Shown: piece after piece, positions 444 to 7,115 of the stretch
How positions within the stretch are numbered: the stretch's first letter is position 1
Layout: the number at the start of each line of letters is the position of its first letter
Virus record (IMG/VR): IMGVR_UViG_2728369593_000018
Direction: 5' to 3' (one strand)
Length of the DNA stretch: 7,115 bases
Source of the DNA: a virus
Taxonomy: Duplodnaviria > Heunggongvirae > Uroviricota > Caudoviricetes
Notes under the pieces: generated by a model
What the model saw: only the letters and a program-made list of their open reading frames with translations
What the model was told of the DNA's origin: nothing
Database searches by the model: none
Program-made: the position numbers and the translations under genes

Positions 444-644
444 ATGGGAATAACTAAAGAACGATTGTTGGAAATAGCAAACCTTAGTGATTGGGCATTA
501 AGTGATGAGAGAATTGTTTCTCCTCATGCTTATGAGTCAGTTACAAGTATAGAAATAACAACAATGGCTAGAATGCTGCTTGGTTATTTCAAAATAGAAA
601 ATAAAAACAGATGGATAGTAATGTTGATATATGTGAGATTTTAG
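444..644 (+). CDS. small hypothetical protein (66 aa)
   Basis: ATG at 444 preceded by GGAG at 435-438; the ORF overlaps the start of the downstream Q-like gene by 34 nt. AT-rich, no recognisable motif, and analogous in position to small ORFs upstream of Q in DLP12-type phages. Confidence 0.3.
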   Translation: MGITKERLLEIANLSDWALSDERIVSPHAYESVTSIEITTMARMLLGYFKIENKNRWIVMLIYVRF

Positions 645-964
645 ACGATTGGGGGGCTTGGGTTGTGGCTGGTAATAGTTCTATTGATTGGCAGGAAATA
701 GCTGATAAATATAAAAATGTTGTTCCTCATGGTAAAAAATCACGTCGTCAGTGCAGCAATGATGAAGGGCGAATTATTGACATTAGTATCCTTAGGTTAG
801 AAAGATATAAGCAACAAGAATATGAGTTAATTGTTGCTCATTTCGTGATTGGTTTATCTCTTCGTGCTATTGCAAAGCAACAAGGATGTTCAGATGGAAC
901 AATTCGTAAAAGATTGCAAAAAGCCTTAGGTTTTTTGACTGGATATATAGCAATTACCAGTTAA
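611..964 (+). CDS. Q-family late-gene antiterminator homologue (QuuD / DLP12-type small Q), 117 aa
   Basis: The translation shares the motifs I recall from E. coli QuuD (127 aa): WGAW near the N-terminus, SRRQCSNDE against SRPQCCDDD, and LIVAHFVIGLSLRAIAKQQGCSDGTIRKRLQKALG against [35 protein letters not shown]. The gene is AT-rich like the surrounding cassette. Confidence 0.6.
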   Translation: MDSNVDICEILDDWGAWVVAGNSSIDWQEIADKYKNVVPHGKKSRRQCSNDEGRIIDISILRLERYKQQEYELIVAHFVIGLSLRAIAKQQGCSDGTIRKRLQKALGFLTGYIAITS

Positions 965-3282: not shown

Positions 3283-3459
3283 GACTGCGGGTGCTTGAGG
3301 TCTATCTGTCTCAGGCATGAACACCAAAAGGCAGATAGAGAAAAGCCCCAGTTAACATTACGCGTCGGCAAGACGACTTAACATTAATCTGAGGCCATAT
3401 CTATGCTCTACACACGTAGGTTAGCCTCTTACGTGCCGAAAGGCAAGGAGAAGCAGGCT

Positions 3460-3615
3460 ATGAAGCAGCAAAAGGCGATGTTAATCGCCCTGATCGTCAT
3501 CTGTTTAACCGTCATAATGACGGCACTGGTAACGAGGAAAGACCTCTGCGAGGTACGAATCCGAACCGGCCAGACGGAGGTCGCTGTCTTCACAGCTTAC
3601 GAACCTGAGGAGTAA
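3460..3615 (+). CDS. hokD: Hok/Gef-family type I toxin (HokD/RelF-like), 51 aa
   Basis: Translation MKQQKAMLIALIVICLTVIMTALVTRKDLCEVRIRTGQTEVAVFTAYEPEE is essentially the K-12 HokD sequence as I recall it (one conservative difference). AGGAG lies 9 nt upstream of the ATG and a rho-independent terminator follows. Confidence 0.9.
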   Translation: MKQQKAMLIALIVICLTVIMTALVTRKDLCEVRIRTGQTEVAVFTAYEPEE

Positions 3616-5123: not shown

Positions 5124-5483
5124 ATGCTCATAGATTTGGTTTTACCTTACCCGCCGACGGTGAACACTTACTGGCGACGCCGTGGCAGCACATATTTTGT
5201 ATCAAAAGTCGGTGAGCGTTATCGCCGTGATGTGGCGCTTATTGTTCGCCAGCAGCAACTGAAATTAAACCTGTCCGGAAGGCCGGCAATAGAAATTATT
5301 GCAGAGCCACCGGATAAGCGCCGTCGTGACCTGGACAATATCCTGAAGGCACCACTGGATGTACTGACGCATGCGGGGCTGCTCATAGACGACGAGCAGT
5401 TTGATGAAATTAATATTGTGCGCGGTCAGCTTGTTCCTGGTGGGCGGTTGGGGATAAAAATCACAGAACTGGAGTATGCATGA
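5124..5483 (+). CDS. rusA: RusA-family Holliday junction resolvase
   Basis: 119-aa ORF with AGAGG RBS; LPYPPTVNTYWRRRG and PDKRRRDLDNILKAPLDVL match the RusA signature as recalled (PDRRRRDLDNLQKA in E. coli RusA). Its stop overlaps the next ATG (ATGA). Confidence 0.9.
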   Translation: MLIDLVLPYPPTVNTYWRRRGSTYFVSKVGERYRRDVALIVRQQQLKLNLSGRPAIEIIAEPPDKRRRDLDNILKAPLDVLTHAGLLIDDEQFDEINIVRGQLVPGGRLGIKITELEYA

Positions 5484-6169
5484 ATAACCAGTATTTACAG
5501 TTTGTTCGTGAGCAACTCATGATTGCCACCGCCGATTTGAGTGGATCAACAAAAGGGCAGCTTGAGGCCTGGCAGGAGAATGCCATGTTTGATACAGGGC
5601 GTTACAGGCGTAAAAAAATCCGGTACCGCGATGAAGTGACTGGAAAAATGATAACGCGGGATAATCCACCAATCCCGGGAAAGCAATCGCTGGCGAAGGG
5701 GGCGTCAATTCCTCTCGTCAGTCCGGTTGAGTTTTTGACATCATCGTGGCGGCGGGCTGTTCTGTCTCTTGAAGAACATCATAAAGCCTGGTTGTTGTGG
5801 TGTTACAGCGGGAGTATTTGTTGGGAATATCAGATCGCGATAACACAGTGGGCGTGGAATGAATTTAATACTCAATCCGGTACCAGAAAAATTGCTGGGA
5901 AAACGCAGGAACGCCTGAAAAAATTAATCTGGCTGGCGGCGCAGGCAGTAAAAGCAGAACTTTTTGGTGGGGAAGGTTATGAATATCAGGAGCTGGCATT
6001 ACTGGCGGGAGTGACAACTAAAAACTGGTCCAAAACATTTACTCGTCACTGGGTTGCAATGAAACACATTTTTCACCGACTGGATAGTGAGGCTTTATTA
6101 TTTGTAATGAGAACACGTTCAAAACAAAAGGCGGCATTTTCAAAGCAAAGTGTTGCAAAAGTAGATTGA
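5480..6169 (+). CDS. putative late-gene antiterminator Q (large, phage-82 / QuuQ-like type), 229 aa
   Basis: Position immediately after rusA and immediately before a promoter, short leader, terminator and tRNA cluster, as for Q in Stx phages and in Qin (ydfU then quuQ). GGAG lies 5 nt upstream of the ATG. The call rests on synteny and size; the sequence is not recognised from memory. Confidence 0.5.
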   Translation: MNNQYLQFVREQLMIATADLSGSTKGQLEAWQENAMFDTGRYRRKKIRYRDEVTGKMITRDNPPIPGKQSLAKGASIPLVSPVEFLTSSWRRAVLSLEEHHKAWLLWCYSGSICWEYQIAITQWAWNEFNTQSGTRKIAGKTQERLKKLIWLAAQAVKAELFGGEGYEYQELALLAGVTTKNWSKTFTRHWVAMKHIFHRLDSEALLFVMRTRSKQKAAFSKQSVAKVD

Positions 6170-6181
6170 AAGGCATATATT
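6153..6181 (+). promoter_or_regulatory. pR'-like late promoter
   Basis: TTGCAA (6153-6158), 17-nt spacer, TATATT (6176-6181), overlapping the 3' end of the Q-position gene and about 55 nt upstream of a strong intrinsic terminator, like the lambdoid pR'/tR' arrangement. Confidence 0.4.
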
Positions 6182-6234
6182 TCATGCAAATCTGATATTT
6201 TGCCGATTTTGTACGTGATGGCAAAATCAAACAA

Positions 6235-6260
6235 AACCCGCCCACAAGCGGGTTTTTTTG
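6235..6260 (+). terminator. tR'-like rho-independent terminator
   Basis: Stem AACCCGC / GCGGGTT with CCACAA loop followed by seven T residues. Confidence 0.6.
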
Positions 6261-6326
6261 TGCCACTTATCTCGGATAGACATGGTGAATGCGCTGGTGG
6301 AGGAGATAAGGGTGATTTTTGTATGC

Positions 6327-6356
6327 TTGCAACATTGATTTTCGTAACGTTATTAT
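6327..6356 (+). promoter_or_regulatory. candidate promoter for the tRNA cluster
   Basis: TTGCAA (6327-6332), 18-nt spacer, TATTAT (6351-6356), about 10 nt upstream of the first tRNA. Confidence 0.3.
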
Positions 6357-6366
6357 CCTGCGCCCG

Positions 6367-6441
6367 GCCCTTTAGCTCAGTGGTGAGAGCGAGCGACTCA
6401 TAATCGCCAGGTCGCTGGTTCAAATCCAGCAAGGGCCACCA
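6367..6441 (+). tRNA. ileZ: tRNA-Ile2-like (anticodon CAU; ileZ/ileX-type), with a 6-nt T-loop
   Basis: Perfect acceptor stem GGCCCTT / AAGGGCC, D-arm GCTC-AGTGGTGA-GAGC, anticodon loop CTCATAA, encoded CCA. Closely resembles E. coli ileX as recalled, except the T-loop reads TCAAAT (6 nt) where ileX has TTCAAGT. Confidence 0.8.
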
Positions 6442-6442
6442 A

Positions 6443-6518
6443 CCGCCACTAGCCATCAGGAAAGAGCGTCAACCCTTTAAGTTGAGTGTGCGAGGTTCGA
6501 GTCCCCGGTGGTGGTCCA
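6443..6518 (+). tRNA. tRNA-like sequence in the argN position; degenerate D-stem and unusual anticodon loop CCTTTAA (possible pseudo-tRNA)
   Basis: Acceptor stem CCGCCAC / GTGGTGG (one G-U), T-arm CGAGG-TTCGAGT-CCCCG (one mismatch), anticodon stem TCAAC / GTTGA, encoded CCA. The D-stem pairs only 2 of 4 positions and position 33 is C rather than the near-universal U; anticodon would read UUU. Confidence 0.45.
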
Positions 6519-6533
6519 TTATCGGTATTTCTG

Positions 6534-6607
6534 CGTTGTTAGCTCAGCAGGACAGAGCAATTGCCTTCTAAGCAATCGGTCACTGGTTCGACTCCAGTAC
6601 AACGCGC
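6534..6607 (+). tRNA. argO: tRNA-Arg (anticodon UCU; argO/argU-type)
   Basis: Perfect acceptor stem GCGTTGT / ACAACGC, D-arm GCTC-AGCAGGACA-GAGC, anticodon loop CTTCTAA, T-arm ACTGG-TTCGACT-CCAGT. The 3' CCA is not encoded. Confidence 0.85.
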
Positions 6608-6622
6608 TACACTTATTTTCCC

Positions 6623-6648
6623 GGCTCGCTTTTGCGGGCCTTTTTTTT
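6623..6648 (+). terminator. rho-independent terminator after the tRNA cluster
   Basis: Stem GGCTCGC / GCGGGCC (one G-U) with TTTT loop followed by eight T residues. Confidence 0.6.
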
Positions 6649-6736
6649 AAATGTCTCACAATTCAGACGGTTGACAGTTGTCTGTTTTGCGGGGAGTTTG
6701 TTAAAAGAAACTGGCATGGTGAATCCCCCTGTGCGG

Positions 6737-6755
6737 CTGTCTCTTATACACAAAT
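6737..6755 (+). repeat. IS50-like terminal inverted repeat (left end)
   Basis: CTGTCTCTTATACACAAAT compared with the 19-bp Tn5 end sequences; immediately followed by a 9-bp stem hairpin CAAATCCCC-ACCC-GGGGATTTG. Confidence 0.7.
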
Positions 6756-6901
6756 CCCCACCCGGGGATTTGTGATGTCTGTCAGTCTGCTTTAGGGGGA
6801 CTCTTTCCATCCGGTAGTTTCCTTCCTCCCCGGCAGCGATTTTTTGAACTTTTTCCTCACCCGTTGATCTTCTCTTATATTTCATTTTCTTCGGGTCTGT
6901 T

Positions 6902-7115
6902 ATGGTACTTTCTGATTGTTATTCATGGGCTAACGAGCAGTTTGGACATGCCCGTCTCGGTGATCCGCGTCGTACACGACGCCTTGTGTCACTGGCCTCT
7001 TCTCTCGCTCAGCATGCAGGTCTTTCTATTGTGAAATCATCCCAGTCCCTGCTCAGGTTGAAGGTGCGTACCGCCTGATACGTAACCCGTCTGTGTCCCC
7101 GCAAGCCATTGCCGA
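6902..7115 (+). pseudogene. IS50-like transposase N-terminal region with an apparent single-base frameshift (3' partial)
   Basis: Frame A gives MVLSDCYSWANEQFGHARLGDPRRTRRLVSLASSLAQHAGLSIVKSSQS, matching Tn5 Tnp ...DWAKSVFSSAALGDPRRTARLVNVAAQLAKYSGKSITISS..., then hits TGA at 7076-7078. The homology continues in another frame as PAQVEGAYRLIRNPSVSPQAIA, matching Tn5 ...EAMQEGAYRFIRNPNVSAEAI. The shift maps to the C-run near 7046-7050. Confidence 0.6.

Follow-up and report, generated by a model that had tools for sequence, protein, structure and literature searches.

In many lambdoid (Stx-type) prophages of Escherichia coli, a cluster of tRNA genes lies downstream of the gene for the Q antiterminator and ahead of the lysis genes. 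Two arrangements are closest to the locus described here. The first, ileZ-argN-argO, is found in Stx2a_F349, 2851, Nil2/Nil3 and 933W, at the same site downstream of Q as in our sequence. The second, ileZ-Lys(UUU, C33)-Thr(UGU)-Gly(UCC), is found in other lambdoid prophages of E. coli and Shigella and in the phages vB_EcoM-606R7, vB_EcoS-689R5 and PhiR47_1. tRNA-Ile2, the type encoded by ileZ, reads AUA once TilS has installed lysidine at C34. A search of the literature available to us for ileZ/argN/argO and for the tRNA genes of 933W returned nothing. We analyzed a 7,115-nucleotide stretch of Caudoviricetes DNA (IMG/VR record IMGVR_UViG_2728369593_000018; hereafter the window) that contains a cluster of this kind. 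A first-pass annotation had proposed that two of its three tRNA genes are structurally anomalous.

Results

A three-tRNA cluster behind Q

ARAGORN called three tRNA-like genes on the plus strand of the window, at 6366-6441 (anticodon CAT), 6443-6518 (TTT) and 6533-6607 (TCT). Their arrangement is a familiar one: in lambda-like E. coli prophages, a trio of tRNA genes follows the gene of the late-gene activator Q (features in Table 1). The Q gene lies directly upstream, with a gap of about 200 nt to the cluster, and its counterpart in E. coli O127:H6 E2348/69 carries the PGAP label "bacteriophage antitermination protein Q". The same post-Q layout is present in Stx2a_F349, Nil3 and strain M1/5. 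Positions 5400-6745 of the window matched the E2348/69 prophage at 99.9%. The three tRNA bodies showed no differences from this reference, and the differences found were two one-base changes in the length of T-runs outside the tRNA genes. In the PGAP annotation of E2348/69, the cluster consists of tRNA-Ile and tRNA-Arg only; the middle gene is skipped.

Table 1. Features of the tRNA cluster and its surroundings (window coordinates)
Feature	Position	Strand	Evidence
Late-gene antiterminator Q	5480..6169	+	Pfam PF06323 Phage_antiter_Q, E 3.5e-91
GC-rich hairpin CCCGCCCACAAGCGGG followed by T7, candidate tR'-type terminator in the Q/tRNA interval	6233..6262	+	Sequence reading
Sigma-70-like promoter, TTGCAA-18-TATTAT, then GC-rich stretch CCTGCGCCC	6327..6356	+	Consensus scan, 9/12 matches
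ileZ, tRNA-Ile2 type, anticodon CAT at 6399-6401, canonical cloverleaf, CCA encoded	6366..6441	+	RF00005 72.5 bits, E 7e-15; ARAGORN; PGAP "tRNA-Ile"
ileZ T-loop TTCAAAT, 7 nt	6419..6425	+	Sequence, Rfam alignment, ARAGORN drawing
Middle tRNA-like gene (argN slot), T12-deleted allele of the UUU/C33 lineage, probable pseudogene	6443..6518	+	ARAGORN tRNA-Lys(ttt), 2-bp D-stem
Deletion site of one nucleotide, T12 in the 5' strand of the D-stem, GCTCA to GCCA	6453..6454	+	Alignments
Anticodon loop CCTTTAA of the middle gene: C32, C33, U34 U35 U36, A37, A38	6474..6480	+	Sequence, ARAGORN
argO, tRNA-Arg, anticodon TCT at 6567-6569, perfect cloverleaf, G6606 then CTA	6533..6609	+	RF00005 68.1 bits; ARAGORN
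Intrinsic terminator-like hairpin and T8, closing the tRNA cluster	6623..6648	+	Motif scan
End of IS4-family insertion sequence (IR CTGTCTCTTATACACAA)	~6737..7115		ISEc13 transposase annotated at the same junction in E2348/69

The sequences that flank the cluster include several putative control elements. A motif scan places the hairpin between Q and ileZ on the minus strand; a tR' is annotated in the corresponding interval of Nil3, and the hairpin could act as a terminator of this type. The promoter-like site ends 10 nt 5' of ileZ, and its match to the consensus suggests promoter function. Its -10 hexamer and the stretch from there to ileZ were near-invariant in an alignment of five phages and prophages, with the -35 hexamer falling beyond the aligned range in four of the five loci. 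The 5' arm and loop of the hairpin that follows argO were conserved in all five aligned loci, and the full hairpin was present in the three that reach that far. Beyond it, an IS4-family element separates the tRNA cluster from the lysis genes; at this junction, the alignment to E2348/69 shows the other inverted repeat in the reference.

The outer genes ileZ and argO

The first-pass annotation had given ileZ a T-loop of only 6 nt and suggested loss of one base from the canonical 7-nt loop or a sequencing error. However, the T arm consists of GCTGG (6414-6418), TTCAAAT (6419-6425) and CCAGC (6426-6430), that is, a 5-bp stem and a 7-nt loop with the canonical T54-T55-C56-R57-A58; t6419 had been missed. 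This base closes a block of ten in the printed sequence and evidently went uncounted. The Rfam tRNA model spans the gene end to end. The D-stem is GCTC/GAGC, the anticodon loop CTCATAA has U33, and the acceptor stem contains C4:G69 and C5:G68. In alignments, ileZ was identical base for base to the copies in Stx2a_F349, Nil3, Evi and PPompW, an identity that extends over Stx and non-Stx phages. Among 113 independent IMG/VR loci, the first 48 nt of the gene occurred as 10 alleles, and 99 of the 113 had the sequence of the window. Since ileZ is fully canonical, neither a base loss nor a sequencing error is left to explain, and the count of two anomalous genes out of three does not hold.

argO has a T arm of ACTGG/TTCGACT/CCAGT, a D-stem of GCTC/GAGC and the anticodon loop CTTCTAA with U33. 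Its 3' end reads G-CTA (6606-6609) rather than G-CCA, with G6606 as the discriminator. Thus, the earlier view that the Arg-UCU tRNA alone is fully canonical is correct as to its perfect cloverleaf (68.1 bits) but overlooks the CTA in place of CCA. Copies of argO that lack CCA are a minority form (7 of 93 in IMG/VR). A 45-mer specific for the CTA allele was found without mismatch in 241 of 5426 complete E. coli genomes, and PGAP still labels this allele tRNA-Arg. To our knowledge, all chromosomal tRNA genes of E. coli encode the 3' CCA. Phage tRNAs that lack CCA can still be matured in E. coli, by RNase BN together with the CCA-adding enzyme, and the missing CCA of argO is therefore an oddity and not a defect.

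The middle gene has a broken D-stem and an unusual anticodon loop

Three observations previously made on the middle gene were borne out. First, the D-stem pairs at two of four positions, as both our reading (GCCA/GAGC) and the ARAGORN drawing indicate. Second, the anticodon loop CCTTTAA (6474-6480) has a C at position 33. Third, a UUU anticodon stands where an Arg anticodon is expected, the canonical argN at this slot having the loop CTTCGAA (UCG). Two further departures had gone unmentioned: the T arm, with a 7-nt loop (TTCGAGT), has an A51xC63 mismatch in its stem, and the acceptor stem contains a G3-U70 wobble. CCA is encoded, and the discriminator is a U (T6515). Two of the checks that had been proposed for the cluster were run. 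ARAGORN called all three genes tRNAs, with a normal T arm in ileZ but a D-stem of only 2 bp in the middle gene. Alignment to ileZ, argN and argO of Stx phages showed an identical ileZ but a middle gene that differs from argN.

Covariance-model searches separated the middle gene from its neighbors. At the Rfam gathering threshold for tRNA (29 bits), ileZ and argO lie above and the middle gene below. The middle gene had no match to RF00005 even at E<=10, and its best score within the clan was 15.7 bits, to tRNA-Sec, with RF00005 scoring below this value. Other occupants of the slot matched RF00005 at 53.2 bits (L012, a locus with U33), 50.4 bits (Nil3 argN), 44.4 bits (L138, the major C33 allele with an intact D-stem), 43.0 bits (F349 argN) and 37.0 bits (Evi). 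Accordingly, the UUU/C33 form with an intact D-stem scores like canonical argN. By contrast, none of the three T12-deleted copies scored (the window, L019 and L115) matched the model. The predicted folding energy of the cloverleaf was -15.1 kcal/mol compared to -23.3 kcal/mol for the minimum free energy (MFE) structure, a gap of about 8 kcal/mol. With T12 restored in silico the two values were -20.4 and -23.1 kcal/mol, although predicted folds of unmodified tRNAs offer weak guidance and the cloverleaf of ileZ is not its MFE structure either.

The anticodon arm and the T12 deletion have separate origins

Comparison with canonical argN shows that the anomalies of the middle gene have two separate origins, an anticodon arm that is lineage-wide and an added loss of T12. 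The anticodon arm reads UCAAC-CCUUUAA-GUUGA, compared to (C/U)CAGC-CUUCGAA-GCUGG in argN. Seven of its 17 positions differ from the commonest argN alleles (6 from F349), three of them as compensated pair changes. Between the UUU and UCG lineages, compensated pair changes are found at 7:66, 27:43 and 30:40, indicating that the UUU lineage diverged with its stems kept. A 46-mer across the UUU/C33 arm was present in 796 of 5426 complete E. coli genomes. Four phages that were isolated or induced (Evi, vB_EcoM-606R7, vB_EcoS-689R5 and PhiR47_1) have the same arm, and all four retain T12. The undeleted form is present in approximately 10% of complete E. coli genomes (796 minus at least 224). Judged from these alignments, C33 and the UUU anticodon are fixed traits of a widespread allele lineage and not signs of local decay of argN.

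Among the matches listed, PGAP labels intact UUU/C33 copies tRNA-Lys and one tRNA-Thr. In one copy of the lineage (L140), the anticodon has mutated to UGU and the gene is called tRNA-Thr, with C33 kept. In the variant alleles of the UUU lineage all changes are uncompensated. A pattern search of IMG/VR recovered a single U33-bearing relative, L012, with the loop CUUUUAU and perfect stems (53.2 bits as given above); the other 11 matches to the pattern were not tRNAs. A scan of species-representative genomes gave E. coli and Shigella flexneri only, both with C33, and no U33 relative. A UUA (ochre-reading) register of CCUUUAA was also considered and dropped, as nothing beyond the letters supports it.

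The T12 deletion has a narrower distribution. A 39-mer spanning the deletion junction was found without mismatch in 224 of the 5426 complete genomes, with serotypes O26, O111, O145, O55:H7 and O127:H6 represented, and its recurrence in so many genomes excludes a sequencing error. It is present on two backgrounds, that of the window and that of L115. PGAP left the deleted copy unannotated in E2348/69, as it did in each of the 30 genomes listed with this allele. The deletion does look like a pseudogenising lesion. Naming of the gene is inconsistent across resources: ARAGORN-based pipelines call the broken copy "tRNA-Lys", PGAP calls intact copies only, and some phage annotations omit even an intact UUU/C33 copy.

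The middle slot is variable and its neighbors are constant

With ileZ as the anchor, we surveyed the middle slot in 119 IMG/VR loci. These contained 56 alleles, compared to 28 alleles of argO (93 loci) and the 10 alleles of the 5' part of ileZ given above. Sixty-five loci had the UCG type, 27 an 80-nt scrambled remnant that PGAP labels tRNA-OTHER, 18 the UUU type, and 9 had fusions, internal deletions or other arrangements; the fusions join argN to argO. Many alleles of the UCG type have mismatches in the T-stem or acceptor stem, or a T-loop with G58. ARAGORN found no tRNA at the middle slot in 29 of 127 loci. In the Yersinia phage YeP1, the homologous gene has the loop CAUUGCC (A33) and was flagged as pseudo by its annotators. 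Collectively, these data mark the middle slot in lambdoid ileZ-argN-argO clusters as a hot spot where alleles are replaced, recombine within the gene and decay, between neighbors that remain constant.

This contrast between slot and neighbors matches the codon demand of the prophage. In 14 prophage coding sequences (2799 codons), AUA was used at 14.3 per 1000, AGA at 11.1, AGG at 6.1, CGA at 5.0 and CGG at 5.4. In K-12, AUA, AGA and AGG are used at approximately 4, 2 and 1 per 1000. Accordingly, AUA, AGA and AGG are 3-5 times (several-fold) above their K-12 values, whereas CGA and CGG, the argN codons, are host-like. Enrichment of the first group and not of the second fits a scenario in which ileZ and argO are under selection and the middle gene alone is under relaxed constraint.

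Discussion

Our data favor a model, to which we assign a probability of roughly 75%, in which the outer tRNAs work and the middle slot is dispensable, its T12-deleted occupant being most likely non-functional. tRNA-Ile2(CAU) from ileZ would read AUA after conversion of the wobble base of CAU to lysidine, and tRNA-Arg(UCU) from argO would read AGA and AGG. Together they would serve codons that the host uses rarely and that are 3-5 times commoner in prophage genes. The middle slot, normally occupied by argN, a tRNA-Arg(UCG), would be under relaxed constraint and subject to frequent recombination between prophages; the absence of CGA and CGG enrichment argues that it is dispensable. In the window, the slot is occupied by a member of a distinct UUU/C33 allele lineage, in a copy that has also lost T12. 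Because this loss collapses the D-stem, the middle gene is most likely a non-functional tRNA remnant. The promoter-like site 5' of ileZ and the terminator 3' of argO suggest that the cluster can be transcribed independently, in addition to read-through by Q-modified polymerase from the late promoter. Expression and charging of ileZ and argO are predicted from their sequences, and inactivity of the T12-deleted allele is likewise a prediction, against which stands the acceptance of this gene as a tRNA by ARAGORN. The persistence of the deleted allele in 224 genomes may reflect clonal spread and is no proof of a loss of function. As originally stated, the finding is an ordinary one: one counting slip, and one common and probably inactive allele in a well-known cluster.

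A broader reading concerns the undeleted UUU/C33 lineage, which may be a functional phage tRNA-Lys selected to escape tRNA nucleases of the host or of competitors. We consider this unlikely. The C33 of the lineage sits at the PrrC cut site (33/34), which fits this reading. The Thr and Gly tRNAs of the four-tRNA cluster, which we take to be near-identical to host thrU and glyT, were set aside as anti-defence variants, since they would share the host nuclease motifs. In PARIS, AriB cleaves host tRNA-Lys(UUU) at U36AAUC|A41, a U39A change abolishes cleavage, and the tRNA-Lys of phage T5 bypasses AriB (PMC12409363). A second study describes P2-OLD, the classic lambda excluder, as cutting tRNAs that have paired CNG motifs in the anticodon stem, and a phage tRNA-Thr as resistant to it (PMC12445682). 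At the AriB site, the middle gene of the window has U36AAGUU, with G39-U40-U41 for UCA. At positions 28-30 and 40-42, canonical argN has CAG and CUG whereas the UUU lineage has CAA and UUG and thus no CNG; the compensated change of G30:C40 to A30:U40 removes both motifs described for P2-OLD. These differences are compatible with a nuclease-evading tRNA-Lys, but any unrelated stem would differ from the AriB and P2-OLD motifs in the same way.

The likeness to a nuclease-resistant phage tRNA-Lys(UUU), deduced from comparison with the published motifs, consists of a phage-borne gene and a UUU anticodon, with the non-host anticodon stem as a possible third feature. The differences are that C33 is not known to be a feature of the T5 tRNA-Lys or the P2-OLD-resistant tRNA-Thr, and that the D-stem of the window's gene is broken. 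In addition, the window comes from a temperate lambdoid prophage and not from a large virulent phage. If the reading were true, the window's copy would be an inactivated allele of an anti-defence tRNA that is so far undescribed. Nuclease resistance of the intact C33 lineage, if real, would carry the idea of counter-defence by phage tRNAs beyond large virulent phages, to lambdoid prophages of temperate phages.

It is quite unlikely, in our assessment, that the T12-deleted gene itself still works, as a decoder of AAA/AAG or a spare tRNA-Lys whose 2-3 bp D-stem is held by tertiary contacts and modifications. The gene is called tRNA-Lys by ARAGORN, keeps G18, G19, the T-loop, the acceptor stem and the anticodon stem, and belongs to a common allele. 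The loop of host tRNA-Lys is CUUUUAA, from which that of the middle gene departs at position 33 only. However, the deletion costs the gene its match to RF00005, placing it at least 29 bits below the intact allele, PGAP does not annotate it, and all four isolated phages have the undeleted form. Moreover, C33, the A51xC63 mismatch and U73 come on top of the deletion; the discriminator of E. coli tRNA-Lys is A73, which the identity rules of LysRS favor. The loop CCUUUAA does hold the 36-UAA-38 motif that is required for t6A37 (PMC13276492). The bacterial t6A synthase, however, touches the D-stem pairs G10:C25, C11:G24 and U12:A23, the last of which is missing from the window's gene (PMC13276492). 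Bacterial tRNAs conserve U33 for the U-turn (PMC13276492), and C33 therefore points, if anything, to a lowered decoding ability.

Retention of the middle element for a role other than decoding, as punctuation for processing by RNase P and RNase E or as a decoy for tRNA-targeting nucleases, would leave its anticodon arm free to vary. The acceptor, D and T arms are indeed conserved, and the anticodon arm varies (UCG, UUU/C33, UGU/C33 in L140 and CAUUGCC/A33 in YeP1); the spacing to ileZ is always 1-9 nt. We nevertheless regard such a role as very unlikely. Many alleles are damaged in the T-loop, T-stem or acceptor stem, others have lost whole arms or are argN/argO fusions, and the failure of ARAGORN to see a tRNA in 29 of 127 loci counts against it as well. 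This pattern of damage is that of a dispensable gene and not of a conserved structural signal.

The first-pass annotation had offered a joint explanation for the Ile-CAU and middle tRNAs: the prophage is defective and its set of rare-codon tRNAs could be decaying. For the T-loop, it had named a sequencing error as the alternative. The middle gene is truly damaged, and an IS element interrupts the prophage right after the cluster. General decay is nonetheless highly improbable: ileZ has a 7-nt T-loop, scores 72.5 bits and is the same as in records of Stx-converting phages and in the isolated phage Evi, argO has a perfect cloverleaf, and C33 and UUU are lineage-wide. What survives of the proposal is decay confined to T12 and the D-stem of the middle gene, the tRNAs for AUA and AGA/AGG being intact. 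Finally, the two single-T length differences from E2348/69 in T-runs reveal homopolymer variation or error in the window's record, but an assembly or sequencing artefact as the source of the D-stem deletion has a negligible probability, as the deletion lies outside a homopolymer (GCTCA to GCCA) and recurs in NC_011601.1 (E2348/69), in 11 PPompW prophage records and in the 224 complete genomes of several serotypes.

Comparison with known tRNA clusters

The cluster in the window fits the ileZ-argN-argO family of Stx and lambdoid phages by its position and by its first and third genes, but its middle gene is not of the UCG type that belongs to this family. ileZ is 100% identical to that of the family, and argO is the same gene, differing at one T-loop base and in the CCA end. 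Spacers agree as well, and so does the hairpin of the terminator downstream. The middle gene has the acceptor stem, D-loop and T arm in common with argN; canonical argN, however, has a GCTC/GAGC D-stem and the UCG loop, whereas in the window T12 is deleted and the anticodon arm is replaced. Unlike in Stx phages, no stx genes follow, and a terminator and the IS4-family element are found instead.

The four-tRNA cluster has the same ileZ at the same position after Q, and its middle gene differs from that of the window only at T12 and by C70 versus T70. Unlike the window, it has an intact D-stem, a tRNA-Lys annotation by PGAP, and Thr and Gly tRNAs in place of argO. The UUU type is found mostly in this ileZ-Lys-Thr-Gly context (15 IMG/VR loci), and the order ileZ-UUU-argO is rarer (six of the sequences fetched, including the window). 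The window looks like a recombinant that joins a UUU/C33 middle gene, as in the four-tRNA cluster, to a 3' half of the argO type, as in the Stx phages.

Organization of the tRNA cluster and adjoining prophage genes

A promoter-like site precedes the cluster of three tRNA genes (ileZ, the middle gene in the argN slot, and argO) and a candidate intrinsic terminator follows it, so the cluster may constitute a separate transcription unit within the late-operon leader. If it does, the tRNAs might be expressed in the prophage state. Farther upstream, sok and hokD form a type I toxin-antitoxin module within the prophage. The window also contains a second Q-family antiterminator ORF. It is unrelated to the PF06323 Q gene, which lies ~4.5 kb farther downstream, and its presence suggests that the prophage remnant is mosaic or tandem.

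Features of the prophage outside the tRNA genes (window coordinates)
Feature	Position	Strand	Description
Second Q-family antiterminator ORF	611-964	+	PF06530, E 3e-32
sok antisense RNA	3289-3465	+	Rfam RF01794, 108.9 bits
hokD toxin gene	about 3460-3615		with sok
Promoter-like site	6327-6356		TTGCAA-18-TATTAT then GC-rich stretch; 10 nt 5' of ileZ
Candidate intrinsic terminator	6623-6648		3' of argO

Comparison with the E2348/69 prophage, and the 3' end of argO

Relative to the prophage of E. coli O127:H6 strain E2348/69, the T-runs at 6339-6342 and 6528-6530 each carry one single-T length change. An IS4-family element adjoins the tRNA cluster, and its insertion junction is the same in both sequences. 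At this junction (6737-6760) the window has the inverted repeat CTGTCTCTTATACACAA and E2348/69 has the opposite one, CTGTCTCTTGATCAGATCT. Thus, either the element is inverted relative to E2348/69 or the window derives from another, closely related strain.

The argO gene lacks an encoded CCA, its 3' end (6606-6609) reading G-CTA rather than G-CCA. Among 5426 complete E. coli genomes, this CTA allele has an exact match in 241 and the middle gene with the T12 deletion is found in 224; the two alleles appear to be linked.

Evidence of recombination and deletion in related tRNA clusters

Three related loci (L025, L052 and L098) harbor hybrid tRNAs in which the 5' half of argN is joined to the 3' half of argO. 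An 80-nt "scrambled" argN remnant is present in 27 of the 119 IMG/VR loci anchored on ileZ (L017 and 26 others), and the copies in L018, L071 and L079 have lost the anticodon arm by internal deletion. Collectively, these fusions, remnants and truncated copies provide evidence of frequent recombination and deletion inside the tRNA cluster.

Single-base change is also seen: in E. coli CE0026a (L140, 407-483), a copy of the UUU/C33 gene differs only by U35-to-G, giving the loop CCUGUAA. PGAP calls this copy tRNA-Thr, and a normal tRNA-Thr(UGU) directly adjoins it.

A homologue of the middle gene lies downstream of Q in Yersinia phage YeP1 (L143, 601-675), where its annotators marked it as pseudo. 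Its acceptor and T arms are the same as those of the middle gene, whereas its anticodon loop is CAUUGCC (A33, UUG). In sequence, the anticodon arm is similar to that of the "scrambled" class from E. coli. Finally, argN of phage Stx2a_F349 (L001, 1617-1693) shares its entire 3' part with the window's UUU gene, including the T arm with an A51xC63 mismatch and the acceptor strand GTGGTGG. By contrast, the 5' part and the anticodon arm resemble argN, and the gene looks like an intragenic recombinant of the argN and UUU lineages.
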